Position numbers and translations under genes: made by a program. A model generated the notes under the pieces. The model did not search any database. It saw nothing but the letters and a program-made list of their open reading frames with translations, and had not been told where the DNA came from. From NCBI GenBank assembly GCA_043813075.1, contig JBDRLL010000010.1:110037-174036 (forward strand): DNA of 64,000 nt, written 5' to 3'. Shown in pieces: positions 3,586-24,277 of this stretch. This stretch comes from Candidatus Altiarchaeota archaeon (GTDB lineage: Archaea; Altiarchaeota; Altiarchaeia; IMC4; SCGC-AAA252-I15). Position 1 is the stretch's first letter, and every line of letters starts with the position of its first letter.

Positions 3586-5010
3586 TTACGGCAATCTTGT
3601 GGTCTTAGCGGCCATATCTGTGCGTGCGGTATTCTCTACGATATCGCATAATCTCTCCATCTTGCCGGCGTTCCTGAACAATTCTCTCTCGCAGAAGGAT
3701 GCGTGTTTTCCTGAAGGGAGATTCGCGTGTAGTGTGCATGTGGAGACGAGGCCCAGGTCGATGTTATCCAGCTCGTGGAACCTGCCTATGAGTATGCTGA
3801 ATATGCCCGGGAATTTGAGTTTCATAGGGCGTCTTCTTACTACAGAGCGTATCACGTCAATGCTTGAACTCAATAGCACCCTCCTTAAGATCATGTCCTT
3901 GATAATCCCCCGTAGGAATTCCATGTAGGGGGCGTTTGCTATGAGTCTGATGGTGTTGAGTGTTTTTGACTGGCCCATGTTCCTGTTTATGTCATCCAGT
4001 CTCTTATTTATCGCATGTAGGTCCAGTGTTTTTCCCAGGGCCTTCATCTCCCTGCCGTTTGTCAGTACGTAGCACCTGATCTCGCATTCAGGGACTCTGA
4101 GGCCTTTTCTCCCAGATATTTTTCGGATGATCTCAAAGAAGTTGTAGGCGAAGACTGTGGATTCTATGAAGTCATCGTCTGTTAGGTCAGATGCTTTCTG
4201 GATTTCCTCGATTATCTCTGCTTGCGTTAGGGTGTTGTCTTGCGGGCGTCTCCCTATGTTCCACACGCTATTGAAGTCTAGGACGCACACGTCCTTGTAA
4301 TTGGATGACGAGAATTTTATGAAATCGCCTATCTGATCGTCGTTTAGCCCCTTTATCACGAGGACAAATGGCATTATCGGTATCCTTTGTTTTTTCAGGT
4401 TTTCGACAGCATGGTTTTTAACGTCCAGCAGGTCTTCACCCCTTATCTGGATGCATTGTTGCCTGGAGAATGAGTCGAACTGTAGTATGACCATGTCTAA
4501 ACCTGCTTTTTTCAGAGTCTCGACGTAATGCATGTCCTCAAGTTTCTTCCCGTTTGTGAACAGTATGGCGTCAAATCCCCTTTTTTTGATCTCTTTTATT
4601 ATCTCTGCGAGATCGTCTCTGACAGTGGGTTCGCCGCCTATGAGATAGATCCGTGAGCCCTTGAATCCGTCAAGCATCTGGATTATCCCATCATACGTTA
4701 GTTCATCCTGACATGCATTCTCATCCGATTCTGCGAAGCAGTACGGGCATTTCTGGTTGCACCTGTATGTGATGAAGAGTTCCAAGGCTTCAGGGTAGGA
4801 GCTATGCCTGGACTCCCTGAAAAGGTTTCTAAGCGCATGATAGTGTTTTGGCTTCTCCCACATGTGCAGTGCTTTGAAATCACCATGCTTATCACATTTC
4901 TTTGCAATAAAAACCCTCCCCGACTCTTCAACGACTATCGCATCTATGATTTCTAAGCATTCCGGACAGTAACTTTTCGTATCATCCAACTTCTTCATAA
5001 TGCAACCCAT
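3586..5010 (-). CDS. Radical SAM enzyme, Tes/GDGT-MAS-like architecture (paralog A)
   Basis: 474 aa. N-terminal knuckle CPECLEIIDA...KKCDKHGDF, radical-SAM triad CNQKCPYC, GGEPT SAM-binding motif, and C-terminal CEIRC plus STCTLHANLPSGKHASFC cysteine motifs. It aligns along its whole length with ORFs 20034-21401 and 21388-22713. Confidence 0.75.
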   Translation of the reverse strand: MGCIMKKLDDTKSYCPECLEIIDAIVVEESGRVFIAKKCDKHGDFKALHMWEKPKHYHALRNLFRESRHSSYPEALELFITYRCNQKCPYCFAESDENACQDELTYDGIIQMLDGFKGSRIYLIGGEPTVRDDLAEIIKEIKKRGFDAILFTNGKKLEDMHYVETLKKAGLDMVILQFDSFSRQQCIQIRGEDLLDVKNHAVENLKKQRIPIMPFVLVIKGLNDDQIGDFIKFSSSNYKDVCVLDFNSVWNIGRRPQDNTLTQAEIIEEIQKASDLTDDDFIESTVFAYNFFEIIRKISGRKGLRVPECEIRCYVLTNGREMKALGKTLDLHAINKRLDDINRNMGQSKTLNTIRLIANAPYMEFLRGIIKDMILRRVLLSSSIDVIRSVVRRRPMKLKFPGIFSILIGRFHELDNIDLGLVSTCTLHANLPSGKHASFCERELFRNAGKMERLCDIVENTARTDMAAKTTRLP

Positions 5011-5057
5011 ATAGTATTATAGCGAAATATTTAACTATCATCTTTCCTGTTGATTCC

Positions 5058-6165
5058 ATGAAAGTGCTTGTTTTTGTGGGTGGGGGCGGAGGCCTTGGGA
5101 CAGCAAGCAGGTCTATTGCTCTCGGCGAAAAATTCATCGGCCAGGGTTTTGACGTGGTCTTCGGTTCTTTCGGGAGATCACTCGATTTTATCAGGCGCCA
5201 GGGATTCGATGCCGGCCGGGTTTCAGCTGAAATGGGTTTTGTGTTGTCTGATGGGCATCTATCCGAAAGAGACTCCACCCTCCAGTATGTGAGGAACATG
5301 TTGTTGTTCAAGATGCGTTCACTGGCTAAATTCATCGCCAGGGAAAACCCTGATCTTATAGTGTCCGACTCCTATCTGCCTGGTGCGGTGGCCTCAGTGT
5401 TGAATGGCAAGCCCACATACCCTTTGATGAACATACTCCACAGGGAAGTATACGCGTCACGTGAGAACGGTTTCAATGTGGGGTGGCAGACTGGTGTGGG
5501 CTGTATGGGACCTTGTGTTTTCAAGGTCTGTGAACGTGTTAATCCCTGACTTTCCCCCTCCAAACACGATATGCGGGGAAAATCTTGTGTGCACTCCAAA
5601 GTTGGCTGCAAAACTCTTGTATACCGGACCATTGATACGCGCCAGCAATGAGGACAGCAATGATTCCCCGGCGTGTGATGTGCTTCTTGTTTTGAACACC
5701 GGATTCTCCAGTTCGTTGATGCGTGAAATAATCGAGACGATGGATGATGCGCCTGACCTAACATGCCATGTGGTCGGCTCTCAAGCCGGAGATTGGCCTA
5801 ATTCCGGAAGTTTTCAGAACATTGGCCTAACGGATAACGTCCTCCAGCATATAGTCAATTCTAAGGTTGTGGTTTCGACTGGCGGGCATACCACCATTTG
5901 CGAGTCAGTCTGCAGTGGAAAACCGATTATGTGCTCTCCAATATCGAACCATAATGAGCAGGAAAACAATATCCGATTTCTTGAGGTGAAGAAACTCGGC
6001 ATTAGACTGTCTCAGGATGCGTCCCACCAGGTAGTATCTGATGGGATACGATGTCTTTTGGAGGGTGGGGAGTACAGGCTTAATTGCGGTAAATTCAGGG
6101 GTGAATACCGTCAAAACGCGGGCACATACTTTTCACGGTTGTTGAAGTCCATTAATTCATTATAG
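5058..6165 (+). pseudogene. GT-B glycosyltransferase (MurG/GT28-like, MJ1255-type) split by a +1 frameshift
   Basis: ORF 5058-5549 gives the N-terminal Rossmann half (MKVLVFVGGGGGLGTASRSIALGEKF). ORF 5461-6165, in the next frame and open from 5431, gives the rest (VLIPDFPPP..., VVSTGGHTTICESVCSGKPIMCSP...EQENN). The two frames overlap at 5431-5549, and a GGGG run lies at 5479-5482. Confidence 0.65.
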
Positions 6166-7558
6166 CCTTTACTGCCCCGAACCTGCCGGCATACCTTTTC
6201 ACGTCCACCCATCCTCTAATCTGCCTTAGATTTCGGAAGATGGTCTTAGGCCTTAGGAAGAATTCTCTGTAGAACTCTTTCCTGCGTTTTATCAGGTATT
6301 CCCTTGTCAGGCCTTCTGGTATGAACACCGGTTGCCATGAGTTTAATTGCGTCAGATCTGTGTTGTCGAAGGTCCCGTATCTCTTGTATGTCTCGTATAG
6401 TCTTGTGTTTGGGAGTGGTGTCATCATTAATACTGATAGTTCTGTCAGTGGGAGCGATTTCGCAAATCTTATCGTCTCCTCTATTGACTCGTGTGTTTCG
6501 GAGGGGTTGTTTATCATGAAGCATGCTTGCGTGTATAGTCCCGCCTGGTCGCTCCATTCGATGGCTTTTCTCGTATCATCTAGGGTGAATCCTTTTTTTA
6601 GCGTATCAAGTATCCTCTGGCATCCGCTTTCTGCCCCATAGAATATGTGCCACATGCCAGCGTCCTTCATCTTCACTAAAAGGTCTTTTGTCACAAGGTC
6701 TGACCTGGTGCAGCACCTCCATGCCAAGTCGATTCCCCTCTCATTAATCAGTTCACATATCTGCCCTATCCTTTTATTGTCTAACGTAAACGTGTCTTCT
6801 GTGAAGAAAATCTCCCTTGCTCCATAGTCTCTAGCCAATGATTCCATCTCATCCACCACCCTCTCGGCGCTGTTCTGCCGGTATTTGCGTCCAAACACGC
6901 TTTGGTCGCAGTATATGCAGTTGTACGGGCATCCCCTGCTGGTGACCATTGTCGTGGAAGGTAGCCTACGGTAGTTCTTAGATTCTGGTATGTACCTCCT
7001 GATGTCTGGAAGCAGGTGTCTTGCTGGAAATGGCAGGGAATCCAGGTCCTCGATAATCCTCCTTGCGTGTGTCTTCACCACATTCCCGTTTTCCCTGAAT
7101 AATATGCCATCCACCCGCCTCAAGTCACCGTTCCCCTCAATAGCGTCCACTAGTTCCAGCATCGTTTCTTCTCCCTCGCCTATCACTCCAAAGTCAAAAC
7201 ATTCGTTGGATATGACTTCCTCAGGATTTGCTGATATGAACGGGCCGCCAATAATGATTTTTATGTCGTCATCCGATTCTCTAATGCTTTTCGCAATCTC
7301 TAGCGTGGTGTAAAATGTCGCCGCCACGCATGTCAGCCCAACAATGTCCGTATTGTGTTTAACCACATGGGATGTGATCTCTCCAGTGTTCAGTCCTTCA
7401 AATTCAGCATCGATTATCCTGACATCATTCCCGTCTTCCTCGAGGACTGCGGCGAGATAGCATAGTCCCAGTGGCGGTTGCTCGCCCCTGCTGCCCAAGT
7501 ATCCTGTGCCATAAAGCCTCTCCAAGTCTACTGGTGGGTTTATGAACGTTACGTTCAT
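6152..7558 (-). CDS. B12-binding-domain (class B) radical SAM enzyme, paralog 1
   Basis: The ORF is open to 7906, but homology with 9420-10841 begins at MNVTFINPPV (ATG at 7556-7558). PPLGLCYLAAVLEEDGNDVRIID is a cobalamin-binding-type N-domain. TSRGCPYNCIYC is the CxxxCxxC triad. Confidence 0.8.
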   Translation of the reverse strand: MNVTFINPPVDLERLYGTGYLGSRGEQPPLGLCYLAAVLEEDGNDVRIIDAEFEGLNTGEITSHVVKHNTDIVGLTCVAATFYTTLEIAKSIRESDDDIKIIIGGPFISANPEEVISNECFDFGVIGEGEETMLELVDAIEGNGDLRRVDGILFRENGNVVKTHARRIIEDLDSLPFPARHLLPDIRRYIPESKNYRRLPSTTMVTSRGCPYNCIYCDQSVFGRKYRQNSAERVVDEMESLARDYGAREIFFTEDTFTLDNKRIGQICELINERGIDLAWRCCTRSDLVTKDLLVKMKDAGMWHIFYGAESGCQRILDTLKKGFTLDDTRKAIEWSDQAGLYTQACFMINNPSETHESIEETIRFAKSLPLTELSVLMMTPLPNTRLYETYKRYGTFDNTDLTQLNSWQPVFIPEGLTREYLIKRRKEFYREFFLRPKTIFRNLRQIRGWVDVKRYAGRFGAVKAIMN

Positions 7559-7598
7559 GGATATATCTTTCGAAATCGTCTTATAATACTCTTGTTGA

Positions 7599-9419
7599 AT
7601 GATGAAATTCCGCCGGTTTATCGAGTTAATGAACCCATTCAGCCTCTCTTCTAGGCTAACCTCATCAGACAGCATTCCCGTCTTGTTTATGGCATTACTA
7701 GCATTATTGTTGGTAGTATCCCAGATTACTGAAAAACCAGTTGACATGACGTATGCCTTTTTTTGCTGGTTTAGCGGTTTTCTTGATGACTTCTTCCGGC
7801 AGTTTACCGGCTGGTCTGCTGGTAGCATCTGCACCGGGAAAGAGGGGTTGGTTAAGGGCGCATCATTCTTCGTGTGGGCTGTCGGATTCCTATTGTGCGT
7901 GATCACTGCAAATGGGCTTAGGAAAAACGGCCTCCCAAGAAATTCGTTTGTTAACCTGCTTACTGTCGTATTAATCGCCGTCTTTATTGCCCGCGTGTTC
8001 GGGCTTTATCTGACGACCTCCCACTCGGACGGTTATGGCGATGAATACTTCTGGATTCACGGGGCATACTTCTACAACCTGTTTTTCGTAAAAAACGATT
8101 TTTTCAACGAGGACTGGCACAATTTCATATCCTATGAGGCTCCTCCTGTGAGCAGATATGTTATCGGTTTCGCACTGGATCGCATAAACCACAGGATAGT
8201 TGAGACTGGTGGCGGCCTGACCCTCTTCCAAAAGGCTTGTTTTGATGTTATGTGCGGTAATCTACGTGATAGCGCAATGGGTTATCCGGGGGATGCTAGG
8301 TTGATGGGTTACTGTGATTCTGTTCTACTGCAGTTGAAGGAGCCTGTTGTCCAGCGTCTTGATAAGGTGGACTATGATGTGGCTAGGCGGGTGATGTTAC
8401 TGTTTGGCGTCTCAACTTCTTTGTTGTTGACTCTATTGTGTTCCCACTATCTTAACCGTGTTTTTTCGGGTTTGCTTGCGGCAACGGTGTTTCTCAGCAA
8501 CGGGATTACCATACCTACGTTCCAGCTTGTTCTCCTTGACGCGATGTGCTGCTTCTTCATCCTCCTCTCCTTGATTTCGTTAATAGAGTTATCCGGCAAG
8601 CTAAGGAGATATTGTACTACCAATTCCTCCAGTAGTCTGGGTGGTAAGCGGTTGTGGGAAGTGGCTGTTTTATCCATAGTAACTGGTTTCCTATTGTCTT
8701 TGGCTGTTGGGACGAAATTTATCTCCGCTTACCTGGTCGTTACCGTCGTTGTGGTTTTTATCGTAAAAATGTTTTTTGAACATGGGATGGTTGGGCCGGG
8801 CCATGGAGAGCATAATCGTTTGCTGAGGATGGCCTCTCTTATGGGCGTTTTTGTCTTGGTCTTCACGTCCGCTTTCGCATTCTTTGTGCTGATGAATCCC
8901 TTCATTTACCCCAGTCCTATAGGTAATACCCTGAAGTTGTTCAATAATCGGCTTGATTCAATGGCACTCCAGGAGAGGGTGGTGGGCGAGGTTAGCATGC
9001 CCCACATGATATTGTTTGGTGAATTGGAGACAAAGCAGATAATAAAGGATGTGAGGATACGGTCGTTATCACATAGGCTGCGGCTGCTCTATTCGAAGGG
9101 GCTGTTGCTTAACCACAGGTTTCAGGTTCCATTCTACGAGTTGATTTATGTGTTCCTGATTCTTGCGGGATTATCCCACATAATCAGAGAATCGTGTGGT
9201 GAGCTATCTGAGGGCTTTTTCGGGAATCACTCGGTAGTGACCGCATTCATCATCTTAACATTCCTTGTGAACGGGACGTTTATGAACTCTGACTGGGACC
9301 GGTATTACACTTATTTTGCCGTATGCACCTGCATGATGCTCGCATTTGGGGTTGAGGTTGTGTTGCGTTCAGCGGACGTTTATCTTCATAAAATCGTAAT
9401 CAGCATGTGGGAAGAATAA
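7599..9419 (+). CDS. Polytopic membrane protein, GT-C-like (paralog of 15413-16957)
   Basis: 606 aa with more than 10 hydrophobic segments. The acidic first-loop segment DGYGDEYFW and FFVKNDFFNEDWHNFISYEAPPVSRYVIGFALD align with FFKKRDLSHEDWHSPLVYDQPNLGKFVLGFSLD of the paralog. The true start is uncertain. Confidence 0.6.
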   Translation: MMKFRRFIELMNPFSLSSRLTSSDSIPVLFMALLALLLVVSQITEKPVDMTYAFFCWFSGFLDDFFRQFTGWSAGSICTGKEGLVKGASFFVWAVGFLLCVITANGLRKNGLPRNSFVNLLTVVLIAVFIARVFGLYLTTSHSDGYGDEYFWIHGAYFYNLFFVKNDFFNEDWHNFISYEAPPVSRYVIGFALDRINHRIVETGGGLTLFQKACFDVMCGNLRDSAMGYPGDARLMGYCDSVLLQLKEPVVQRLDKVDYDVARRVMLLFGVSTSLLLTLLCSHYLNRVFSGLLAATVFLSNGITIPTFQLVLLDAMCCFFILLSLISLIELSGKLRRYCTTNSSSSLGGKRLWEVAVLSIVTGFLLSLAVGTKFISAYLVVTVVVVFIVKMFFEHGMVGPGHGEHNRLLRMASLMGVFVLVFTSAFAFFVLMNPFIYPSPIGNTLKLFNNRLDSMALQERVVGEVSMPHMILFGELETKQIIKDVRIRSLSHRLRLLYSKGLLLNHRFQVPFYELIYVFLILAGLSHIIRESCGELSEGFFGNHSVVTAFIILTFLVNGTFMNSDWDRYYTYFAVCTCMMLAFGVEVVLRSADVYLHKIVISMWEE

Positions 9420-10841
9420 ATGAAAATCACGCTTCTTTATCCGAAAAAATCCGATGAATACGTGGGATACCTGCCCTCCCCTCCTTATGGTCTGCTATGC
9501 CTTGCGGGAGTCTTACTCCGGGAAGGCCATTCTCCAAATGTTGTTGACTTGAACTTTGTGGGTGAGTCGGAGGCTATTGGTCGTATTAACGGCTCTGATG
9601 CGGTAGGCATCTACGCATCAATCGACGTATACTGGGAGGCGTTAAGGCTGGCTAAGGTGTCGAAAGGCTGCCGCAAGTTCGTTATCCTTGGCGGGCCGCA
9701 GGTCACTGCCTTCCCTGGGATGGCTCTTGATTGCCCTGACGTTGATGTTGTTGTTCTGGGCGAGGGTGAGGCGACGATAATTGATTTAATCGGCTGTTTG
9801 GTTGAGGGCGGGGATTTGTCGGTGGTTGATGGCATCGGTTTCAAACGGGATGGTGCTAAGGTTTTCACCCGGAAAAGGGGTTTTATCAGTGATATTGATG
9901 CGTTGCCTCTCCCCCCGTTCCACCTGCTTCCCATACAGGATTACTTGGCTTATTGGCGTAAAAACTATGGGTACACTGCCATCAACATTGTCACCAGCAG
10001 GGGATGCCCGTACAACTGCATATACTGTTCCAAACAGACATTCGGGGGTTTATACCGTGCCAGATCGCCAATCAGTGTCGTGGACGAGATGGAGCATATC
10101 AATGGAGCTTATCATCCTAGCGTTATCGTTATCCAGGACGACCTCTTTCTCCTCGACAGGAGGCGGGTCATCGGCATTTCCAAGGAGTTGATTGCCAGGG
10201 GACTGGCGGTGAGTTGGGTTTGCACTGCAAGAGTTGATATGGTTGATGGGGAAGTTTTGGGGTGGATGAGGAAGGCTGGTTGTGTTATGATAAACTATGG
10301 TGTTGAGTCTGGCTCTGAAAGGATGCTGGAGTATCTCGGCAAGGGCACACATAGGTCTCAGATAGTTTCCGCGTTCAAGCTGACAAAGGATGTTGGAATA
10401 AAAGCTGGCGCGTTCATAATGATCGGGATACCCGGTGAGACTGTTGAGGATATCGGGGAGACGGAGTCTCTGATACGGGAGATACGCCCTGACTGGATGA
10501 ACGTCACGTTCTTCACGCCCATACCCGGTAGTCGTGCTTGGTCTGAGCTGGTTGGCGGCGAGGACTTTGGTGGGGAATTTGTGGTGGATTTTAACTTCAG
10601 GACGTTCAGTCAGAGATACAATTTTTCGAATATGAGCGAATCAGAATTGAATAATGCTCGGGCAAGGATTAGGAGGGATCATTTCCTCAGGTCCGTATTA
10701 TACCGGGTGATTAATGCCATCCGAAGGCCCAGTATCATGTTCTCCTATCTCAGGAAGCTTATGGTCTTCCTGTCTTCGGGTGGTGGGTTCCGATTGAACA
10801 CGTTTGTAAAGAGTAATCTTACCTGGTTTTACAAGGATTGA
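9420..10841 (+). CDS. B12-binding-domain (class B) radical SAM enzyme, paralog 2
   Basis: 473 aa. YGLLCLAGVLLREGHSPNVVDL N-domain and TSRGCPYNCIYC triad. The ATG directly abuts the TAA of the upstream GT-C-like gene. Confidence 0.85.
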   Translation: MKITLLYPKKSDEYVGYLPSPPYGLLCLAGVLLREGHSPNVVDLNFVGESEAIGRINGSDAVGIYASIDVYWEALRLAKVSKGCRKFVILGGPQVTAFPGMALDCPDVDVVVLGEGEATIIDLIGCLVEGGDLSVVDGIGFKRDGAKVFTRKRGFISDIDALPLPPFHLLPIQDYLAYWRKNYGYTAINIVTSRGCPYNCIYCSKQTFGGLYRARSPISVVDEMEHINGAYHPSVIVIQDDLFLLDRRRVIGISKELIARGLAVSWVCTARVDMVDGEVLGWMRKAGCVMINYGVESGSERMLEYLGKGTHRSQIVSAFKLTKDVGIKAGAFIMIGIPGETVEDIGETESLIREIRPDWMNVTFFTPIPGSRAWSELVGGEDFGGEFVVDFNFRTFSQRYNFSNMSESELNNARARIRRDHFLRSVLYRVINAIRRPSIMFSYLRKLMVFLSSGGGFRLNTFVKSNLTWFYKD

Positions 10842-10858: not shown

Positions 10859-11593
10859 CTACCCTACCTTTAATCTTTCGGTCGGAGGGTATCTGGTCAG
10901 AAAATCTTCTATGAAAAGCTTATACTCCTCCGTCAACTCTCCGGAGGATATCCGTATTAACGTATCCCCATGCCACCATCCGTAGTAATGCATTATGTAG
11001 GGGTCTTTGCCTTTAATCATCGAGGATCCTTCTTCTGTCTCACCTATTACGTCGTCATTCGTGTAGAGTGATTCGTAATATTCCTTCTCTCTAGTGCCTA
11101 ATATGACTCCAATGCGGTCATCCTTGCCTTTTTTATAGATTATGTGGATCCACTCATTCCCGTCTGACGTATTCACGATGCTGACAAATTCAAATGAGTA
11201 TCCTAACGTCAAGTTGTCTTTGACTATGTATCTGCTGATTTTTTCATTGAATGTCTGATTCGGTTCGAATGCGCCTAAGTAGGTTATATTATCCGCGTCA
11301 TTGTAGTATCTATTCCACCTTACTGCCCCTGGTCTGATGGTTGTTGTGACCAGCTTCTCGATTTTTATGAACTCACTGCTAGGCAACACAATCTTTATCG
11401 TTGTTGTGGTTGTTGCTTCTGGCTCTACTTGTGTGGGGCTTAGATAGTAGTATGCTATCAGTATGGCGGCTGCGAGTAATACTATGATCACTGTTCTACT
11501 ATCGGTTTTTCTGTCTTTTGGCCTAACCCCCTCCACTATCACTGGGCTTCCCTGACCTTCATCACCCCAGAATTCTTCCTGGTCGCTCATCAT
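10859..11593 (-). CDS. Single-pass membrane-anchored protein, unknown family (paralog of 23609-24277)
   Basis: 244 aa. One TM segment (VIIVLLAAAILIAYYY), a TTTTT linker, and C-terminal FLTRYPPTERLKVG matching FINKYPPTKRLRV of the paralog. Confidence 0.6.
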   Translation of the reverse strand: MMSDQEEFWGDEGQGSPVIVEGVRPKDRKTDSRTVIIVLLAAAILIAYYYLSPTQVEPEATTTTTIKIVLPSSEFIKIEKLVTTTIRPGAVRWNRYYNDADNITYLGAFEPNQTFNEKISRYIVKDNLTLGYSFEFVSIVNTSDGNEWIHIIYKKGKDDRIGVILGTREKEYYESLYTNDDVIGETEEGSSMIKGKDPYIMHYYGWWHGDTLIRISSGELTEEYKLFIEDFLTRYPPTERLKVG

Positions 11594-15016: not shown

Positions 15017-15021
15017 TAATA

Positions 15022-15228
15022 ATGGGCAACGGAAACAGGGAGCTGATTACCGGCGGAGTCATAGGCGGGCTAGTTTTCGGCGGTAAGGTGATAACAGGGA
15101 TGTTGTCTCCAATATGCCTCGCCGGTTCTGCGATGTTTCTGACTGTTGGCGGTGTCAAGAAACTGTATCCTGACAAGAGCCTTTCGCTTAGAAAGCGTGT
15201 TAAACTAAGGTTTGCTGAGAATGGGTAA
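15022..15228 (+). CDS. Small Gly-rich membrane protein (tandem paralog 1)
   Basis: MGNGNRELITGGVIGGLVFGG...SPICLAGSAMFLTVGGVKKL. The ATG at 15022 is 5 nt after the guaA stop. Confidence 0.5.
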   Translation: MGNGNRELITGGVIGGLVFGGKVITGMLSPICLAGSAMFLTVGGVKKLYPDKSLSLRKRVKLRFAENG

Positions 15229-15409
15229 GGGCGATACTGAACTCGCGGTTGGAGGGGCTCTGGGCGGTCTGGCTGTTGGTGAAGTCCTGGTTCTGGGTGT
15301 CGCATGCCCTCTTTGTGTTGTCGGCGCAGCAGTGCTCCTGGCTGCCGGCGGCCTGAAGAAGGTCCGGACAAAGGTCGGGAAATCATGCGGCAGTCGCAAG
15401 ATTAAGTGA
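15221..15409 (+). CDS. Small Gly-rich membrane protein (tandem paralog 2)
   Basis: MGKGDTELAVGGALGGLAVGE...ACPLCVVGAAVLLAAGGLKKV. Its ATG overlaps the preceding TAA (ATGGGTAA). Confidence 0.5.
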   Translation: MGKGDTELAVGGALGGLAVGEVLVLGVACPLCVVGAAVLLAAGGLKKVRTKVGKSCGSRKIK

Positions 15410-16957: not shown

Positions 16958-16961
16958 CTAG

Positions 16962-18494
16962 ATGATGTTGCACGCCACAAATTCCAGATCATTCTCCGTC
17001 TTGCTCTGCATTATACTCTCATTTAACCTCATCAACTCCATGTTCCACGTCTTAAACGCCGAATTCGATCACGACGAATTCCAGCACATGCACATAGCCT
17101 GGAACATACTGGCTGGTAAAGTCGTGTACCGGGATTTCTTCGACCACCATGGCCCCCTATTCTCAATGCTTAACGGATTCTTCCTCAGGCTGCTGGGCAT
17201 TGAAGCATCAGTATCCACTCTCTTTTACCTCAGGGCAACCAGCCTCCTGTACATGTCACTGACACTGTATCTTACGTTTAGGATAGCCTCCGAAGCCTTA
17301 GAGTCAAGGCAGGCAGGCCTTTTGTCGGCGGCAATACTCTCCGGGCTGCTCGTATTCCAACTCAAGTCAACCGAGTTTCGGCCTGACGTCCTCCAGTCTG
17401 TCCTATGGCTTTCAGGACTGTATGTCGTTCTGATGGATTCTGGTGGGGGCTGGAGGAGTCGCCTCTTCCTGGCGGGGATTCTGTTTGGTGGCGTGGTGAT
17501 GACCACAATGAAGGGTGTTGTCGGCGTCGCATCAGTCATACTCTACTACCTCGTAGTTTGTCTAAGGGGTGTCCAAGAATGTGGGCAGTGCACCCGGAAT
17601 ATCCTGTCACTGATTTCAGGCATGCTCGTAGTGTTCCTACTGTTATGCATATACTTCCTCTCTTACGGCGCTCTAAGCGAATTCATCTACTATAACACAT
17701 GGTTTAACCTTCATGCGTTCATGAACCATAATAACGATAATTTCTCGAGCATCATGTTATTCCTCATGGAAACCCAGCCCCTCTTCGTGGCCGCCGGCCT
17801 TGGAGGCCTTTTGATGTTGGGTTGGGGACTTATTATCCCAGGCTCCCGCGGTCCTGGCTATTCGAGGAGGCTGTTGCTGTTCACGTCCTCCCTGGTTGCT
17901 GTTTTTTCCGCGCCACTTGGATTGTATCCGCAGCATTACCTCCTCATACTGCCCCTGTTGTCTGTCACTTCCGCATACGCCTTCCTCTGGCTTAAGCAGG
18001 CTCTTGAAGACGTTAATTCCACTGGCTTCTTATACGTCTTCTCCCTGTTCTTCTTTTTTGCCAGCATGATATTCGCTTCAGTCAGCTATACCCCCTATGC
18101 TCCTTCAGACATCCTAATCAGTCAGGTTGAGCTCACCGAGTTCATCCTCCGGAACACTTCACGCGATGAGCCGGTGCCTTTGCTCGTGTGGAACAATTGC
18201 GGCGGGTTCGTATTCAACGAAGACATCCAGTACTACTGGTCTTCCAGCATGGATATGGAGGATGTCTTTGAGATGGATGAGGGTTATGACGTTTTTGGCG
18301 AGCACCTGACCCGTCTCATGGGGGAGAAAAAAGTTAGGTATGTGCTGTCAGAGGATGTTGACACTTCACGCTACGACCAATGGTATGTGGGACACATTAT
18401 ATACCGTGGTACGCCGCCTGAGACAAGGAGGTATGTCGCGGAAAACTTCCATCAAGGCGAAAACCCGTGCCTATGGATACGTAATAACGCGTGA
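16962..18494 (+). CDS. GT-C glycosyltransferase, PMT_2/ArnT-like
   Basis: 510 aa, polytopic. N-terminal loop EFDHDEFQHMHIAWNILAGKVVYRDFFDHHGPL is a typical acidic DxDE-type loop of ArnT/PMT_2 proteins. Confidence 0.65.
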   Translation: MMLHATNSRSFSVLLCIILSFNLINSMFHVLNAEFDHDEFQHMHIAWNILAGKVVYRDFFDHHGPLFSMLNGFFLRLLGIEASVSTLFYLRATSLLYMSLTLYLTFRIASEALESRQAGLLSAAILSGLLVFQLKSTEFRPDVLQSVLWLSGLYVVLMDSGGGWRSRLFLAGILFGGVVMTTMKGVVGVASVILYYLVVCLRGVQECGQCTRNILSLISGMLVVFLLLCIYFLSYGALSEFIYYNTWFNLHAFMNHNNDNFSSIMLFLMETQPLFVAAGLGGLLMLGWGLIIPGSRGPGYSRRLLLFTSSLVAVFSAPLGLYPQHYLLILPLLSVTSAYAFLWLKQALEDVNSTGFLYVFSLFFFFASMIFASVSYTPYAPSDILISQVELTEFILRNTSRDEPVPLLVWNNCGGFVFNEDIQYYWSSSMDMEDVFEMDEGYDVFGEHLTRLMGEKKVRYVLSEDVDTSRYDQWYVGHIIYRGTPPETRRYVAENFHQGENPCLWIRNNA

Positions 18495-18505
18495 TCATGC
18501 CCTGT

Positions 18506-19996
18506 TCATTTCAGCACACCGTATACAGTGATCTTACCGTCTGAGACTATCCTCTCCAGGTGGCTGAAGTCAGTGATATTGGCGTGCCAACCCTGCTGGT
18601 GCACCACATAGTCCACCCCGTACTGGTCTATTATCCTGTTGAAGTCTTTCTCTCTCGAGGGTATCTGCACTGCCCTAGCGTTGAACACGTAGTTCACGTA
18701 ATACGGGAAGTTGGCCATCACAACGTCTTCTTCCCCAACCCTGCCTTCGAGCATCACGAGGGCAGGGTATATGCCATCAAAGGTGTTGGACATGAAGTAG
18801 ACTGCTGAAGTGATGTTGATCAGGACCATGAGGCAGATGGAGGTCACGTAAGTTATCCTCCCAATCCTGTCCCTGTATAACTTGAATTTATCCACGAAGA
18901 AGAGCTCAAAAACAATCGCGGACGCTATGGAGAAGAATGGGACCAGCGGATAAAGGTATCTGACCCTGCCGAATGTTGTTGAAGTCATCAGGAAACTGAG
19001 GATGAAGTATGCGAGTATGCTAGCCCAAAATTCCCTCCTACCTGCAACGCGTTTATACAAGTCCCTCACCATAAGCAACCCCAGGCCGAAGACAAGCGGG
19101 TTGGGGGTGAAGAACACGCACCCTCCCACCAGGTTTATGCAGTTCATAAGAACCCAGACGCAGGTCTCCGTGTTTATCCTGCCCAGTATCATACTCCCTA
19201 TCGATTCGTTTATCTCCAGTCTTGAGAATAATTCATCCTCCCTCATCGGTATTAGGAATCCTATGGCGTGAAAGTGGTTGTAGAAGGGGTTTCCAGTGCT
19301 GGCGTAATTTCGGTACAGCCATGGCGAGGAGACAACCAGTGCGACGAGGACGACAGTCAATGCCCTGCCGACCCCATTCCTAGCCCCTGCCTTGAGGGAG
19401 TAATAGATGAATACTACTGGTATGAGCACGAAAGCGGATATCCTGGTTAGGTATGCTAGTCCTAGGGCAACCCCTGTTATGACAAGCCCCCTCACGCCAT
19501 CAAACTTAATCATCAGGTAAAGCGTCAGCAGAACAAAGAAGCTGAAGACCGTGTCTGAAAGAACCTGGGGCAGGTAAGTCAGCGCGTAGACGTTCCCTGA
19601 ATAGAATACCGCGGAGACGATTGAAATCCTCCCCGACCCTGTTAACTCCAGTGCGATAATATACACGAGCCCCGCTATCAGGCTTTCGAAGAGGATGTTG
19701 ACAAGCTGCGCGCTATAAATGCCGGGGCCGAATATCCTGAATGATAATGCCGTCAAATACAGGTATACCGGCTGCCGGAAGTAGTATGTCATGGGGAATG
19801 AGTCAGACCTAAGTATCAGAGGCCATATAACGTCTACCACCAGGCCCCTGCCCTCGTAGATGCTTTTCGCGATTGCTAGGTGGTGGTATGAGTCGTAATA
19901 CAGATTCCCAATTATCGCGTATTTCCAGACCAGTATCAGCCTGAAAACCAGGTTCAATGCCACAATAAGCAGGATTATCTTGTGGTTGCGCTTCAT
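18506..19996 (-). CDS. GT-C glycosyltransferase, PMT_2/ArnT-like
   Basis: 496 aa, polytopic. YYDSYHHLAIAKSIYEGRGL loop follows TM1. It lies directly downstream of the two tandem radical-SAM genes. Confidence 0.6.
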   Translation of the reverse strand: MKRNHKIILLIVALNLVFRLILVWKYAIIGNLYYDSYHHLAIAKSIYEGRGLVVDVIWPLILRSDSFPMTYYFRQPVYLYLTALSFRIFGPGIYSAQLVNILFESLIAGLVYIIALELTGSGRISIVSAVFYSGNVYALTYLPQVLSDTVFSFFVLLTLYLMIKFDGVRGLVITGVALGLAYLTRISAFVLIPVVFIYYSLKAGARNGVGRALTVVLVALVVSSPWLYRNYASTGNPFYNHFHAIGFLIPMREDELFSRLEINESIGSMILGRINTETCVWVLMNCINLVGGCVFFTPNPLVFGLGLLMVRDLYKRVAGRREFWASILAYFILSFLMTSTTFGRVRYLYPLVPFFSIASAIVFELFFVDKFKLYRDRIGRITYVTSICLMVLINITSAVYFMSNTFDGIYPALVMLEGRVGEEDVVMANFPYYVNYVFNARAVQIPSREKDFNRIIDQYGVDYVVHQQGWHANITDFSHLERIVSDGKITVYGVLK

Positions 19997-20033
19997 CTCT
20001 TCTCTTTATTATGCTGATTCACGGAAAAATACC

Positions 20034-21401
20034 TCACTCTCCAGAGGTTCTGGTATTGTCGCAGGACCTTCTCATATTCCTTAGGCAGAATGACTCTGGT
20101 CGGCCGGCCGGGTTGTCCGCGTATAGGGTGCAGGTGTCCGTGAAATCCAGGTCAATGTTGTGCCTGTCATGGTATCTGCCGAGCATGATGCTGAGTATGC
20201 CTCCCGTATTCGAGGATGATGGCGGCTTGCCCAGCATGGATTCAACCGCGAGCTTAAGGCTCTTTAAGGCGAATGGTCTAGCATGCCTGTTGGACAAGAC
20301 GCCCGCCAAAATCTTAAAGAACGGGAATTTCCTCATAAGCCAGAACCTACCTGCCAATGATTCGCCCTCAATCATCCCATTCAACTCCAGTAGTCTACTG
20401 TTGACCTCCTTCAAGTCAATGATCCTGTTTATCGGTACTGGAACGTTGTCTACCACGATACTATAGCATCTTACCTCGCATTTCGGGCTTCTCCTGCCAG
20501 AGCCGCCGAACACCTTCCGCAGCACTTCGAAGAAACCATAGCTGAAGCGGGTGCTATCAATGAAGTCTTCCTCGCTTATGCCGTAATGCCTGTATAATAT
20601 GTCTATCATATGGGAGTGGGAGAAGACGTCTGGATCGTATGGGCCGTTAAGGTCCCACATGCTCTGGAAGTTGACGATTCTCACAGTCCTGCTGTTCTCC
20701 ACAGCATAGTCTGTGATCTTCTTCACCTGGTCTTCATTCACACCCCTCCTGATTATCGCGTTAATCTCAGTGGTCACGTTCAATTCAACCAGGTTTTCCA
20801 GCGTCCTCATCTTATGATCGAGGACGTCACTGCCATAAAGCATCTTGCATTGTTCCCTGTCAAAACTGTAGAATGATAGTATCACCAGGTCAACGCCTGC
20901 ATCCTTCAAGCCAGCCACATAATCAATGTCCCTCGTCCTAACACCGTTGGTGAACAACACCACGTTCTTACCCTTGTCTTTCACGGCCTTGATTATCTCA
21001 GGCAGGTCTTCCCTCAGTGTTGGCTCTCCCCCGCAGAGATACACTGAGGATCCTCTGAAGCCATCAATCCTCGAGATGATATCCTCCACGCTCGGCTCAT
21101 CATCTAATGTCCCTCCTGTTTGCGCGAAGCAGTGGGGGCACCCCATATTGCAGTCGAGCGTCACGTCTATCACTAGGCCGTCAGGGTCTCCGGACTCCCC
21201 CCGCCCCAGTAGGCTGCTCATATTCCAATACAGTCCAGGGCTCTCGTAGAAGTGAAGGGCCTCAAACTCGCCGTGTTCCCCGCATTTCTTGGAGATCCGC
21301 ATCCTACCGTCCTTCTCGAATACTATTGCGTCAATCTCCTTCCTGCAGGTCGGGCACAGGCTCCTCGTCTTCCTGGTTTCCATATCTTCATCCACCATCA
21401 T
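20034..21401 (-). CDS. Radical SAM enzyme, Tes/GDGT-MAS-like architecture (paralog B)
   Basis: 455 aa. SLCPTCRKEIDA...KKCGEHGEF, CNMGCPHC, GGEPT, CEVRC, DTCTLYADNPAGRPESFC. An alternative start, METRK, lies at 21383. Confidence 0.75.
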   Translation of the reverse strand: MMVDEDMETRKTRSLCPTCRKEIDAIVFEKDGRMRISKKCGEHGEFEALHFYESPGLYWNMSSLLGRGESGDPDGLVIDVTLDCNMGCPHCFAQTGGTLDDEPSVEDIISRIDGFRGSSVYLCGGEPTLREDLPEIIKAVKDKGKNVVLFTNGVRTRDIDYVAGLKDAGVDLVILSFYSFDREQCKMLYGSDVLDHKMRTLENLVELNVTTEINAIIRRGVNEDQVKKITDYAVENSRTVRIVNFQSMWDLNGPYDPDVFSHSHMIDILYRHYGISEEDFIDSTRFSYGFFEVLRKVFGGSGRRSPKCEVRCYSIVVDNVPVPINRIIDLKEVNSRLLELNGMIEGESLAGRFWLMRKFPFFKILAGVLSNRHARPFALKSLKLAVESMLGKPPSSSNTGGILSIMLGRYHDRHNIDLDFTDTCTLYADNPAGRPESFCLRNMRRSCDNTRTSGE

Positions 21402-22713
21402 TCATTGAATATATGTGGTCCATGTCCAAGTCCTCCAGTCTCTTCCTTCCAGTCGAGAATATGTTGTTCTCGCAGAACGTCAATGTACCCCTCTCAGAGT
21501 CGGAGTATAGGTTGCACGTGTCTATGAGATTATAGTCTGCGTTGTATCTGGTCTGTGATGGGTTCACCACGATACCTATCATGCCTGGCACATTGTCTTT
21601 GAACTTTCCACCAAATAGTATCGCATTAAGGAAGCTGGCGGACAATCTTACCATGATTGGGATGAGTCTGGAGTCAAACAATATCCTCCGTTTCATAATG
21701 TTCAGGAATAGGCTGGGGAAGGAGTTGCTCTCATTCAAGGCAGTCGTCATCCCCTCCAAATCCAGCATCCTATTCAATGGGGTAAAAACACCTTCTCTCA
21801 CATGGGCATAGCATACCGCCTCGCATAATGCAATACCTTTCCTGTCCACCCTCACCCTGCTTAGGAAGCTGGTGAGTGTGACATCAAACATTGTGTTGGA
21901 GATGAAATCATCTTTAGTGATGCCCAACTCGCTTATCCTGCTGAATATGTCATCGTTCCTAACAAATTTCCTGTCGAAGCCGGCAGCTCCTTCCGGGGAT
22001 ATGGGGCAGAACAATACCGTCCTCATCCCGTCTGACATTTCACCTGCGAGCTCTAATATGGGCTTCACCTGGCTTTCATTCAAGTCCTTAACGATAACCA
22101 CGAAGAAGGACAGCCATATGCTCGTGCCTTCAAGCGATTTCATAGCCTTCCTCTTGACGTCCAACAACCTCATGCCCCTCATCCTCTCGTTAATCCCGTC
22201 GTCCATGGAGTCCAACTGCAGGAGCACTCCATCCAGCCCCGCCTCGTCAAGCTTCCTTGAGAGTGTTTCATCAAGCAGCAGTCCGTTCGACAAGAGTATG
22301 ACCCCGAAGCCCCTTTCCTTCAGGCTCCTGACGATATCCGGCAAGTCCTCCCTCATCGTGGGCTCGCCACCGTACAACAGGATGTTCCCCCCACCCCACA
22401 TCCCAGCCTTCCCGATTATATCCTCAATCACCGGCTCTTTTTTCGCGGTGTTGAAGCAGAATGGGCAGTTCATATTGCACTTGTCTGTAACGTCTATCGT
22501 CATGTCCTTTATCGGAGGGTTCAGCCAAGCATCAGAGATTCTCAGCATGTTCTCGTACATATACGGGTCGTCCCATGCATGAGGGCATTCAAAAATACCG
22601 TGGTCAGCGCACTCCCTTGACACGATGACAACGCCATCCTTGATGCTGATTTCACCGTCAAGCTTCTTCAGGCAGACCGGGCATAGACTTCTCGTTCTGA
22701 CAGGCTCCATCAT
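21388..22713 (-). CDS. Radical SAM enzyme, Tes/GDGT-MAS-like architecture (paralog C)
   Basis: 441 aa. SLCPVCLKKLDG...RECADHGIF, CNMNCPFC, GGEPT, CEAVC, DTCNLYSDSERGTLTFC. Confidence 0.75.
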   Translation of the reverse strand: MMEPVRTRSLCPVCLKKLDGEISIKDGVVIVSRECADHGIFECPHAWDDPYMYENMLRISDAWLNPPIKDMTIDVTDKCNMNCPFCFNTAKKEPVIEDIIGKAGMWGGGNILLYGGEPTMREDLPDIVRSLKERGFGVILLSNGLLLDETLSRKLDEAGLDGVLLQLDSMDDGINERMRGMRLLDVKRKAMKSLEGTSIWLSFFVVIVKDLNESQVKPILELAGEMSDGMRTVLFCPISPEGAAGFDRKFVRNDDIFSRISELGITKDDFISNTMFDVTLTSFLSRVRVDRKGIALCEAVCYAHVREGVFTPLNRMLDLEGMTTALNESNSFPSLFLNIMKRRILFDSRLIPIMVRLSASFLNAILFGGKFKDNVPGMIGIVVNPSQTRYNADYNLIDTCNLYSDSERGTLTFCENNIFSTGRKRLEDLDMDHIYSMNDGG

Positions 22714-22775
22714 ATCGCCTTTATTTACCTTTTATTTGATAAAATATTACTGTCCTGACGTTCAGGTGATTTTTA

Positions 22776-23603
22776 GTGGATATTTTAGCGTATCTCACAG
22801 GATTTTATCGGATAAAAGATTGGGTCCACCTCCTAGGTCTGGGTTTCATAGGCCTATCCTACTCCAGTCCCTTCCCCCCTGATGATGGGGCCATACTGGC
22901 GTGTGGCATAGTGTCATCACTATACCTTGCATTCGGTTACTCATCAAACACTCTATTCGAGGAGCACATGGGGAAATCATTAGGCTGCCGTCAGCTACTC
23001 CTCTCAATGCTGCCAGCCGCAGTCGGCTTGGCATTCTCCTATCATCTCTCACCCCCACTGGCTTTCCTATACTCCATTGGGGTTCTGTTTGGCATACTCT
23101 ACTCTGCCCCCCCAGTAATGGCGAAAGGCATGCCTGTAATCGAATTGTTCTTCAACTCACTACTATTCACCCTGATATTCCTGTTCGGCGTTGTGTTGGG
23201 TGGCGGTTCTGCGAGCAGTGACGTCCTGTTTTTCTCAGCATTCATCTTCATCATGGTCATCCCATTCCAGCTCGTGCAGGAACTCACGGACATGGACCAT
23301 GACGCGTCAAAGGGCATCAAGACGACTGCAGTGCATATGACGCCCAAGGCAGTCAGGCTTATGATGGTTGCGGCCATACTCGTTATCCTACTGTTCTCAG
23401 TGGTCATGCCGCCGTGGGTTGGGTTGGACTGGAGATTCACGGTGGCCACCATCCTGTTCGGATTATCGTTTCTGCCTTCAACTAGAATGCCATCTGCCAG
23501 TGGGAATGCGGACTATGGGCGATTAAGGATTGGCCTTAGATACGCTGGCATCGCATATGGTCTGTTGCTGGTATTACTGCTCTCTATTAAGCAGGGTTTT
23601 TGA
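22776..23603 (+). CDS. UbiA-superfamily prenyltransferase-like membrane protein with an atypical first Asp-rich motif
   Basis: 275 aa, about 8 TM segments. LYSAPPVMAKG and the second motif DMDHDASKGIKTTAV (DxxxDxxxGxxT) fit UbiA. The first-motif position reads SSNTLFEEHMG instead of NDxxDxxxD. GTG start. Confidence 0.55.
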   Translation: MDILAYLTGFYRIKDWVHLLGLGFIGLSYSSPFPPDDGAILACGIVSSLYLAFGYSSNTLFEEHMGKSLGCRQLLLSMLPAAVGLAFSYHLSPPLAFLYSIGVLFGILYSAPPVMAKGMPVIELFFNSLLFTLIFLFGVVLGGGSASSDVLFFSAFIFIMVIPFQLVQELTDMDHDASKGIKTTAVHMTPKAVRLMMVAAILVILLFSVVMPPWVGLDWRFTVATILFGLSFLPSTRMPSASGNADYGRLRIGLRYAGIAYGLLLVLLLSIKQGF

Positions 23604-23608
23604 CTGAG

Positions 23609-24277
23609 TCATACGCGCAGCCTCTTTGTCGGAGGGTATTTGTTGATGAAGAAATCCTTTATCTCAGACAGCCTGCCTTCTTCCGGTAGCGTGGTGACCT
23701 GCATCAGGCGGTCTTCACTAACCCACGTGTATCCTGGCATTCCAAGCTTGCTTACTGTCTTAGCGATCATGTTGTCGAATTCTGGTTTAATCTCCGTGTT
23801 GACGGCGTTTATATGGTCCTCGTAATACGTGCCTTTCGTGCTTACTATGAAGTAGTACTTCTTACCGTCAACATCATACTCTGCCACCACAAACTCGAAT
23901 CCGGTGTTTGTGTCCTCATCACCCTCCACGTAGAATATCCCCACGAACATAAGTCCTGCGGGAAGCTTATCTTCTATTATATATCTGGTTAGAAAGTCCT
24001 TCTCAACATCACTGGTCTCGCCAGTGTCCTCCAGGCTACTGCCCCTATAAATCATCTTCCTCACTGGCATAACATCTGAATCGACTGAATTATTGACTCC
24101 AGACTCTGTCGTGGGGGCTGATACGAACGTATATGCTATTATGAGTACTGCAACGACTCCCACAATGACCAGCGGCATCTTGCTGGATGAACTACCATCG
24201 CTTATCTCCCTGCCTTCAACGATTGTCGGTATGTCAATCCCCACGGTAACATCACCCTCTACTGGTATTCTATTCAA
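23609..24277 (-). CDS. Single-pass membrane-anchored protein, unknown family (paralog of 10859-11593)
   Basis: 222 aa. TM segment LVIVGVVAVLIIAYTFV and C-terminal FINKYPPTKRLRV. Confidence 0.6.
   Translation of the reverse strand: MNRIPVEGDVTVGIDIPTIVEGREISDGSSSSKMPLVIVGVVAVLIIAYTFVSAPTTESGVNNSVDSDVMPVRKMIYRGSSLEDTGETSDVEKDFLTRYIIEDKLPAGLMFVGIFYVEGDEDTNTGFEFVVAEYDVDGKKYYFIVSTKGTYYEDHINAVNTEIKPEFDNMIAKTVSKLGMPGYTWVSEDRLMQVTTLPEEGRLSEIKDFFINKYPPTKRLRV

Follow-up and report, generated by a model that had tools for sequence, protein, structure and literature searches.

A gene island of Tes-related radical SAM proteins in a Candidatus Altiarchaeota archaeon and its cassette, a candidate lipid pathway, in Bacteria and Archaea

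Gene content of the island

The window analyzed here is a 64,000-nucleotide stretch of a contig from a Candidatus Altiarchaeota metagenome-assembled genome (MAG) (JBDRLL010000010.1, positions 110,037 to 174,036). At positions 3586 to 24277 of the window lies a run of genes for radical S-adenosylmethionine (SAM) proteins related to the tetraether synthase Tes, B12-binding radical SAM proteins (B12-rSAMs), a UbiA-like protein, and glycosyltransferases. This interval is best explained as a single coherent biosynthetic island, the core of which is a cassette common to Bacteria and Archaea. In this genome, the cassette has grown by duplication and comprises three Tes-like genes (rS1 to rS3), two B12-rSAM genes (B12a and B12b), five genes for C-type glycosyltransferases (GT-C; GTC1 to GTC5), and two genes for single-pass proteins (sp1 and sp2). 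In our assessment, the chances are about even that the cassette makes a prenyl-based membrane lipid or glycolipid whose chains are C-C coupled and methylated.

Every open reading frame (ORF) that a first-pass annotation had listed was recovered at the same coordinates in the MAG contig from the ORF list and translations, and the motifs and paralog sets that it had described were found as well, the latter with BLASTP E values from 4e-8 to 9e-111 in the window. Pfam profiles returned the same families above gathering scores, except for the N-terminal half of a split GT-B gene, whose match was weak. The window proteins that were looked up fall within NCBI accessions MFH1403239 to MFH1403255, a 17-number span, and carry generic names.

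Family membership and predicted fold of the Tes-related proteins

The genes rS1 (3586 to 5010), rS2 (20034 to 21401), and rS3 (21388 to 22713) lie on the minus strand, and each product matches PF23545 (Zn_ribbon_HMPTM), the zinc ribbon that bears the name of MJ0619, together with the radical SAM family PF04055. The translations contain the motifs CPxC...C..HG, CxxxCxxC, GGEPT, CExxC, and (S/D)TC(T/N)L(H/Y)...FC. In BLASTP comparisons, rS1 and rS2 were 37% identical (E 9e-111), and rS3 was related to both (E 7e-54 to rS1 and 2e-61 to rS2). PGAP names all three "radical SAM protein" only and starts rS1 four residues downstream of the ORF start used here. The solved relative nearest to rS1 by sequence is GDGT-MAS, the Tes enzyme that takes part in the synthesis of glycerol dialkyl glycerol tetraethers (GDGTs), with a nearly full-length alignment to PDB entry 7TOL (E 6.5e-43).

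An AlphaFold2 model of rS1, built from a 19-sequence alignment, reached a pLDDT of 86.9 and a pTM of 0.88. The model matched 7TOL and 7TOM with template modeling (TM) scores of 0.78/0.75 (E 8e-32; 497 alignment columns for 7TOL). These were the sole full-length matches in the PDB; all other entries matched the radical SAM core only, with TM scores of about 0.37 (MoaA, 0.37; SkfB and SuiB, 0.37 to 0.38). The structural comparison that the first-pass annotation had suggested thus pointed to GDGT-MAS, which, like rS1 to rS3, is a soluble or peripheral protein. GDGT-MAS has four metal sites and four domains, and one of these domains, that of the N-terminal cluster, [4Fe-4S]N, is missing from rS1.

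The residues expected at the other three sites are present. The rubredoxin-like motif C-X2-C-X20-C-X2-H is formed in rS1 by C15, C18, C39, and H42, with spacing identical to that in GDGT-MAS (C9X2C12X20C33X2H36), and rS2 and rS3 are alike in this respect. The radical SAM motif CX3CX2C (C84/C88/C91 in rS1) and GGEPT are invariant. Three C-terminal cysteines, C309, C425, and C440 in rS1, do not vary among 19 clade members; they line up with GDGT-MAS cysteines and presumably ligate a cluster of the [4Fe-4S]C type. In GDGT-MAS, this cluster is held by three cysteines and a labile methionine and carries a substrate-sulfur intermediate.

In a neighbor-joining tree, the window proteins fall in a clade of their own, here called clade A (P0002 to P0021); the assignment of rS2 and rS3 to it draws on Pfam, NCBIfam, BLASTP, the motif census, and the tree. 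Clade A differs from characterized Tes proteins (MJ0619, MA_1486; model NF045702), to which rS1 to rS3 are 23 to 30% identical. The [4Fe-4S]N motif, a second CX3CX2C about 25 residues upstream of the radical SAM motif plus a histidine, was missing from all 24 clade A proteins and all 5 proteins of a sister clade in a motif census, whereas it was present in 14/14 Tes proteins and in 10/10 proteins of TrsS, a bacterial Tes-related radical SAM (seleno)protein of unknown function. The linker is also about 20 residues shorter, with 38 to 42 amino acids in clade A and 57 to 63 in Tes and TrsS. On the NCBIfam Tes equivalog model, which has a cut-off of 450 bits, rS1, rS2, and rS3 scored 197.1, 162.4, and 144.9 bits, while the control Tes-clade proteins P0031 and P0036 scored 674 and 632 bits. 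On the TrsS model (NF045646; cut-off, 490 bits), they scored about as high as on the Tes model (192.1, 160.5, and 154.9 bits), while TrsS proteins from the same search reached 535 to 680 bits. TrsS proteins resemble rS1 to rS3 in length (about 440 amino acids) and in combining PF23545 with PF04055, but they keep both CX3CX2C motifs, and their loci are without UbiA-like or B12-rSAM neighbors. A literature search on TrsS returned a list entry only, with no function given.

A published Tes from Ca. Altiarchaeum was 25.6%, 24.9%, and 30.1% (the last over a partial alignment) identical to rS1, rS2, and rS3; the E values were 2e-41, 2e-34, and 4e-35, although the database comprised just 10 sequences. 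The field recognizes Tes homologs by a BLASTP E value below 1e-50 and more than 20 to 30% identity to a proven Tes; rS1 to rS3 fall short of this, and surveys of Tes homologs use cut-offs that they do not reach. Since the Altiarchaeum enzyme is 42 to 47% identical to Tes-clade proteins, the phylum Altiarchaeota has a canonical Tes of a different kind. By sequence comparison, then, rS1 to rS3 are relatives of Tes outside the Tes family proper, and the island does not encode the canonical GDGT synthase of the organism. The Tes/GDGT-MAS architecture proposed in the first-pass annotation stands as regards the nearest characterized relative, the fold (with one of its four domains missing), and three metal sites; membership in the family does not. 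That annotation had also named placement outside the Tes/GDGT-MAS clade, for example among peptide maturases with a SPASM domain, as evidence against its reading. Strictly, the proteins do lie outside that clade, and they do not group with SPASM peptide maturases.

These results bear on a reading in which rS1 to rS3 belong to Tes/GDGT-MAS as true paralogs and produce tetraethers or macrocyclic archaeol, perhaps extended, C25-containing GDGTs or glycerol trialkyl glycerol tetraethers, and the UbiA-like protein is a second enzyme of the digeranylgeranylglyceryl phosphate (DGGGP) synthase type for longer chains. GDGT-MAS is the nearest characterized relative by both sequence and fold, and DGGGP synthase is the best match of the UbiA-like profile (see below). 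According to the literature, Altiarchaeota-dominated waters hold GDGT-0 and extended tetraethers of unknown genetic basis, and a second Tes homolog of M. acetivorans, MA_1114, has a different product spectrum. Given the low Tes scores, the missing [4Fe-4S]N motif, the distance from the Altiarchaeum Tes, the generic PGAP name, and the occurrence of the closest relatives and of the whole cassette mainly in Omnitrophota and "Planctomycetia" bacteria, however, we judge this reading quite unlikely.

Members of clade A are rare: among 1.84 billion representatives (50% identity), a profile search found about 60 full-length proteins at 298 bits or more, and the whole superfamily amounted to 1,121 proteins at an E value of 1e-30 or less. 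The nearest relatives of rS1 to rS3 are mostly bacterial and come from Omnitrophota and "Planctomycetia" MAGs. In the tree of paralogs, rS1 and rS2 are sisters, and rS3, an older paralog line, groups with copies from loci L014, L021, and L001, so that at least one split between paralogs predates the spread of the cassette. The cassette has probably been transferred horizontally. Searches of plasmids and phages found no clade A copy, just homologs of the Tes/TrsS type and MoaA-like matches. Radical SAM proteins of the Tes superfamily were seen on haloarchaeal megaplasmids (H1, H4, H7, and H8) of Halorarius, Salinirubellus, Halalkalicoccus, and Haloarcula; the literature describes haloarchaea with Tes homologs as not producing GDGTs.

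The conserved cassette and its partner genes

Clade A genes lie in tightly packed clusters whose recurring partners are an ortholog of the UbiA-like gene, several B12-rSAM genes, and further Tes-like paralogs (two or three copies per locus in total) together with small radical SAM/SPASM proteins. Such clusters were found in Omnitrophota MAGs or Omnitrophota-like metagenome contigs (L004/10, L008, L009, L011, L012, L013, and L022; among them DAONDX010000006.1 for L008, JBAZOC010000003.1 for L010, and JBAZNT010000001.1 for L013), in a "Planctomycetia" MAG (L001), a Nanoarchaeota MAG (L005), an uncultured archaeon (L014), and an unassigned metagenome contig (L021). The MAGs that carry the cassette include GCA_964415355.1 and GCA_018221045.1. 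We compared deduplicated loci of at least 13 kb, 13 with clade A genes and 29 Tes/TrsS control loci from a metagenome scan. A UbiA-like gene was present at 11/13 clade A loci and 0/29 control loci (Fisher p = 1.8e-8), a B12-rSAM gene at 12/13 and 2/29 (p = 1e-7), and a GT-C gene at 6/13 and 0/29 (p = 3e-4), p values that overstate the support because the loci are phylogenetically related. The cluster is syntenic in relatives rather than scattered, and the GT-C genes, which the first-pass annotation had counted as part of the island, are statistically linked to the cassette.

The archaeal locus L103, whose DnaJ is 67% identical to that of the window, has a compact island in the corresponding position, with the gene order DnaJ, an sp2-like gene, UbiA (38% identity), a GTC2 ortholog (39%), a B12b ortholog (52%), and a B12a ortholog (62%), followed by the end of the contig; the gene for subunit B of guaA (guaA-B), which interrupts the island in the window, is missing at the equivalent spot. 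Because L103 has this compact version, the window island appears as an expansion by duplication (rS1/rS2, GTC1/GTC3, and sp1/sp2) plus an insertion of guaA-B. The "Planctomycetia" locus L001 (CAYPYS010000003.1, 355 to 21353) is an unbroken co-directional run with about 16 radical SAM genes in 21 kb. It includes a UbiA-like gene, seven B12-rSAM genes, three Tes-like genes, a MiaB-like radical SAM gene, and more radical SAM genes (two with SPASM matches), as well as a GT2 gene and a gene whose product weakly matches GNAT.

The UbiA-like gene of the window (22776 to 23603, plus strand) encodes a divergent putative membrane prenyltransferase with at least five hydrophobic segments and a PF01040 score of 65.9 bits (cut-off, 34.2); PF01040 is matched by 10/10 members of its family. 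A PDB search with the single sequence gave noise only. With a 10-member profile, the best match was the DGGGP synthase of M. jannaschii (6M31; E 7.7e-18), followed by AfUbiA (4TQ3; E 8.8e-15). The ether-lipid link drawn in the first-pass annotation therefore has a counterpart in the family's best solved relative, an archaeal ether-lipid enzyme. The window protein is like both in length, in belonging to the UbiA fold family, and in its second Asp-rich motif (D172-MDH-D176, followed by ASKGIKT). Unlike a DGGGP synthase, it scored 21.8 bits on the corresponding model (PRK12882), below the cut-off of 296.

The sister clade of clade A is flanked not by UbiA-like genes but by homologs of the diacylglyceryl transferase LGT (PF01790). 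The layout of L105 (7060 to 11395) is LGT-rSAM-rSAM-LGT, that of L016 (1331 to 7394) is similar, and in L106 (4782 to 6925) an unannotated 276-amino-acid protein stands at the LGT-like position before the radical SAM gene. L105 also carries an adjacent gene for a 2,104-amino-acid Laminin_G_3 protein. Each of the two clades is therefore directly beside a polytopic lipid transferase of about 250 to 300 amino acids, and, of the evidence at hand, this shared proximity argues best for a lipid substrate. On a plasmid of Chondrinema litorale WSW3-B12 (NZ_CP111057.1; L107, 6241 to 8362), an LGT-family gene overlaps a gene for a radical SAM protein of the Tes/TrsS type, which has both CX3CX2C motifs and is 33 to 35% identical to Tes-clade proteins. 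As a cultured Bacteroidota bacterium, C. litorale provides a cultivable system in which to study how a Tes-like enzyme is paired with a lipid transferase.

The B12-rSAMs B12a (6152 to 7558, minus strand) and B12b (9420 to 10841, plus strand) both carry TSRGCPYNCIYC in their translations. Their PF02310 scores were 80.6 and 37.9 bits, and each matched PF04055 at 75 bits; the two are 32% identical to each other (E 3e-62). No model of a named B12-rSAM subfamily (BchE, HpnJ, HpnR, the ladderane type, and others) was matched at its cut-off; the best NCBIfam matches, those of B12a, were BchE (237 against 481 bits) and HpnJ (218 against 578 bits). B12a belongs to a very large uncharacterized family. 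It matches genes of the L001 cluster at 334 to 371 bits, and some B12-rSAMs of cassette loci are 40 to 60% identical to it. B12a and B12b are unproven candidates for lipid C-methylases.

The abundance of radical SAM genes also bears on a different kind of product. In proteusin and sactipeptide pathways, many B12-rSAM and SPASM enzymes are combined to modify a ribosomal peptide, and the island could be read as a cluster for such a ribosomally synthesized and posttranslationally modified peptide (RiPP). The related clusters hold up to about 16 radical SAM genes, including SPASM and MiaB-like ones, the RiPP enzyme ApyD is among the NCBIfam matches of B12a, and L020 contains a 77-amino-acid ORF (4549 to 4782) within a block of SPASM radical SAM and B12-rSAM genes (783 to 8777) beside a clade A gene. 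This block could be a separate RiPP-like subcluster. In the window, Pfam found no SPASM domain (PF13186) in rS1 to rS3, RiPP-maturase models matched them at 35 to 77 bits over the radical SAM core only, and the genes have no precursor-like ORF, no protease, and no RiPP recognition element next to them. The small proteins of the island are glycine-rich transmembrane (TM) proteins, and the constant partners of the Tes-like genes are polytopic membrane transferases. We consider a RiPP product extremely improbable and reject it because no precursor was found.

The five GT-C proteins of the window all exceed the Pfam gathering cut-offs for PMT or PMT_2 (22.7 and 26.1 bits, respectively) and have 7 to 11 hydrophobic segments each. 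GTC1 (7599 to 9419, plus strand; PMT, 32.8 bits; about 11 segments) and GTC3 (15413 to 16957, minus strand; PMT, 36.3 bits) are paralogs (E 5e-55). GTC2 (11646 to 13853, minus strand; PMT_2, 42.8 bits, with a PMT match as well), GTC4 (16962 to 18494, plus strand; PMT_2, 30.1 bits), and GTC5 (18506 to 19996, minus strand; PMT_2, 50.7 bits; NCBI name, "glycosyltransferase family 39") are related to the rest at the Pfam-family level only. An acidic motif stands directly after the first TM segment in all five (GDEYFW, WDEAYY, WEDHGF, DHDEFQ, and YYDSYH; WDEAYY is that of GTC2). In this motif and in their polytopic PMT_2/GT39/GT83-type architecture, they are like ArnT, which acts on lipid A, and PimE, which acts on phosphatidylinositol mannosides, although the match to ArnT, found with GTC5, is weak (24 bits against 567).

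Whether these genes belong to the cassette is a separate question, as a small lipid cassette (UbiA, Tes-like, and B12-rSAM genes) might lie by chance among functionally unlinked genes for envelope or protein glycosylation (GT-C and GT-B). The window genes form many short units over both strands, unlike co-directional bacterial operons. The run is broken by guaA and mini-proteins, GTC2, GTC4, and GTC5 have no close paralogs among themselves, and about half of the clade A loci show no GT-C gene. We nevertheless regard a chance arrangement as very unlikely: GT-C genes are enriched at clade A loci (6 to 7 of 13, against none of the 29 control loci; the seventh is held by L020), in L103, UbiA and B12b immediately flank the GTC2 ortholog, and in L006 a homolog of GTC4 (42% identity) adjoins a homolog of rS1 (59%).

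The GT-B gene (5058 to 6165, plus strand), which the first-pass annotation had called frameshifted, consists of two ORFs in different frames, 5058 to 5549 and 5461 to 6165, with an 89-nucleotide overlap. The first matches Glyco_trans_4_4, a GT4-type N-terminal domain, weakly (20.8 bits; cut-off, 29.7), and the second matches the GT1/GT28 C-terminal domains Glyco_trans_1_3 and GT28_C above their cut-offs. The split is a frameshift, a pseudogene, or an assembly error. The junction (5440 to 5560) has no homopolymer run, and the split may reflect a true pseudogene instead of an error in sequencing. The proteins sp1 (10859 to 11593, minus strand) and sp2 (23609 to 24277, minus strand) are paralogs (24% identity, E 4e-8); sp1 has one TM segment, and sp2 lies between UbiA and DnaJ, a position kept in L103. 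No Pfam or NCBIfam match was found for sp1, a search of 5.8 billion proteins returned only sp1 itself with no homolog beyond the contig, and an AlphaFold2 model of sp1 with sp2 reached a pLDDT of 41.

As the first-pass annotation had noted, guaA-B (14090 to 15016, plus strand) and two mini-protein genes (15013 to 15409) interrupt the run. The GC content of guaA-B is 0.557, within an island of 0.477. The mini-proteins (15013 to 15228 and 15212 to 15409, plus strand) are glycine-rich paralogs encoded in tandem; each has one predicted TM segment, and neither matches Pfam. They have in common the pattern G-x-G-(N/D)-x-E-L-x-x-G-G-x-x-G-G-L...P-x-C...G-G-x-K-K, and their membership in the island is uncertain. 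A Pro/Arg-rich ORF of 134 amino acids antisense to them (14982 to 15386, minus strand) is probably spurious. The flanks of the island are housekeeping genes (phosphofructokinase, fructose-bisphosphatase, DnaJ, DnaK, and glyceraldehyde-3-phosphate dehydrogenase) with a GC content of 0.52 to 0.53, about 5 points above that of the island. The low GC content of the island fits acquisition by transfer but is weak evidence for it, because membrane-protein genes are often GC-poor. Just beyond the island lies a fourth radical SAM gene (25518 to 26675, minus strand; 385 amino acids), flanked by DnaJ and a gene for a small EF-Tu-domain protein. Its sole Pfam match is PF04055 (37 bits), PqqE and HxsC are matched weakly, and it is not kept beside DnaJ in L103.

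A candidate lipid pathway and its significance

We infer the catalytic steps of the pathway from the radical SAM fold, the metal-site motifs, family placement, and synteny. At the membrane, the UbiA-like enzyme would join an isoprenoid chain to an acceptor that is small and polar. The Tes-like enzymes would then activate inert sp3 carbons of the chains by means of 5'-deoxyadenosyl radicals, use the conserved C-terminal [4Fe-4S] cluster to hold the first radical in the manner of GDGT-MAS, and form C-C bonds, either tail to tail or as cross-links. The B12-rSAMs may methylate, cyclize, or desaturate the chains, for which Grs, Gmm, Cgm, and Ted are precedents, or possibly act on sugars. Head groups would be glycosylated by the GT-B enzyme at the inner face and, by analogy with ArnT and PimE, by the GT-C enzymes at the outer face with polyprenyl-phosphate sugars.

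A fuller version of this proposal, doubtful but credible in our view, is that UbiA-like, clade A Tes-like, and B12-rSAM proteins, with or without GT-C, form a self-contained pathway for undescribed isoprenoid glycolipids that are cross-linked or membrane-spanning and multiply methylated. The cassette would have moved between Bacteria (Omnitrophota and Planctomycetota) and Archaea (Altiarchaeota and DPANN), and it could be the missing source of orphan lipids of anoxic settings, such as extended, overly branched, or hybrid isoprenoid/branched tetraethers.

Several observations weigh against a prenyl-lipid product. In the UbiA-like protein, the first Asp-rich motif, NxxxDxxxD in DGGGP synthase, is degenerate (N58-TLF-E62-E63-HMG in the window, N-x3-(D/E) in the family), and some bacterial members, such as that of L001, have lost the second motif as well. 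Loss of the [4Fe-4S]N motif could mean that the Tes-like enzymes catalyze a different reaction. Neither geranylgeranylglyceryl phosphate synthase nor glycerol-1-phosphate dehydrogenase was seen in the cassette loci, the trees are neighbor-joining only, and the relatedness of the loci inflates the co-occurrence statistics. To our knowledge, the bacterial hosts of the cassette are not makers of isoprenoid ether lipids.

The accessory genes near relatives of the cassette weigh in the same direction. They are largely of the glycan type, encoding GT2, a Wzx-like flippase (Polysacc_synt), NAD-epimerase, carbamoyltransferase, class IV aminotransferase, and ATP-grasp proteins; others encode a protein with a weak GNAT match, an ABC transporter, CobW, and a methyltransferase. 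Moreover, a homolog of B12a (50% identity) sits in an archaeal glycan-type cluster without a UbiA or Tes-like gene (L104; JBFOMW010000868.1, 345 to 13478), so that the B12-rSAMs may act on sugars. L104 also contains GT1, GT2, GT15, a Wzx-like flippase, LPG_synthase_TM, an epimerase, two more B12-rSAMs, and a SPASM radical SAM protein.

With the five GT-C and the GT-B genes of the window, these neighbors favor a polyprenyl-phosphate-linked surface glycan or polysaccharide as the product. The radical SAM enzymes would then modify sugars, the UbiA-like protein would make a polyprenyl-phosphate sugar donor as DPPR synthase does for the GT-C arabinosyltransferases of mycobacteria, and the GT-C enzymes would polymerize or transfer it. 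The pairing of a UbiA-family protein with GT-C enzymes is known from mycobacterial arabinan synthesis, where the DPPR synthase gene co-occurs with Emb/Aft genes. The window protein, however, is without sequence signs of a phosphoribosyltransferase: no phosphoribosyltransferase-type UbiA model was among its NCBIfam matches, and its family profile matches DGGGP synthase and AfUbiA. In addition, the one characterized protein that shares the fold of the Tes-like enzymes binds lipid tails, LGT-like lipid transferases rather than sugar enzymes accompany the sister clade, and a polyprenyl synthase gene follows the GT-C gene of L020 and adjoins its clade A copy. On this evidence, we hold a glycan product to be unlikely and prefer the prenyl-based lipid or glycolipid.

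Clustered radical SAM genes for lipid tails are already known, and what is new here is clade A and its cassette. Tes, Gms, Grs, Gmm, Cgm, and Ted are radical SAM enzymes that act on lipid tails; Gms, Grs (GrsA/B), Gmm, Cgm, and Ted perform C-C coupling, methylation, cyclization, or desaturation at inert lipid carbons. The gms-grs-gmm genes are clustered, as in Thermococcus guaymasensis, and such clusters resemble the island in joining radical SAM and B12-rSAM genes. Unlike the island, they are without a UbiA-like gene, a set of Tes-like paralogs, or GT-C genes, and they are confined to GDGT-producing archaea, apart from homologs of gms in bacteria with tes or mss. Tes loci differ from those of clade A as well, which are mostly bacterial and have two or three paralogs per locus with UbiA-like and B12-rSAM neighbors. 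In full-text literature searches, we found no account of clade A or of a cassette of UbiA-like, Tes-like, and B12-rSAM genes, in agreement with the first-pass annotation, which had called the combined cluster undescribed.

These data define a third branch of the Tes superfamily, which can be recognized in sequences by a single CX3CX2C motif and a short linker and which has a constant context of a UbiA-like or LGT-like membrane transferase and B12-rSAMs. For enzymologists, the branch provides a GDGT-MAS variant that occurs in nature and lacks the N-terminal cluster. In metagenome surveys, moreover, a radical SAM protein with PF23545 should not by itself be taken to indicate GDGT synthesis. Paleoclimate proxies are built on tetraether lipids and their modifications, and some classes of environmental lipids have yet to be linked to a producer or a gene; for these, lipid geochemists gain candidate genes in Omnitrophota, DPANN, and Altiarchaeota. 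If it is true that the cassette makes isoprenoid ether lipids in bacteria, the finding would bear on the "lipid divide" between Bacteria and Archaea.

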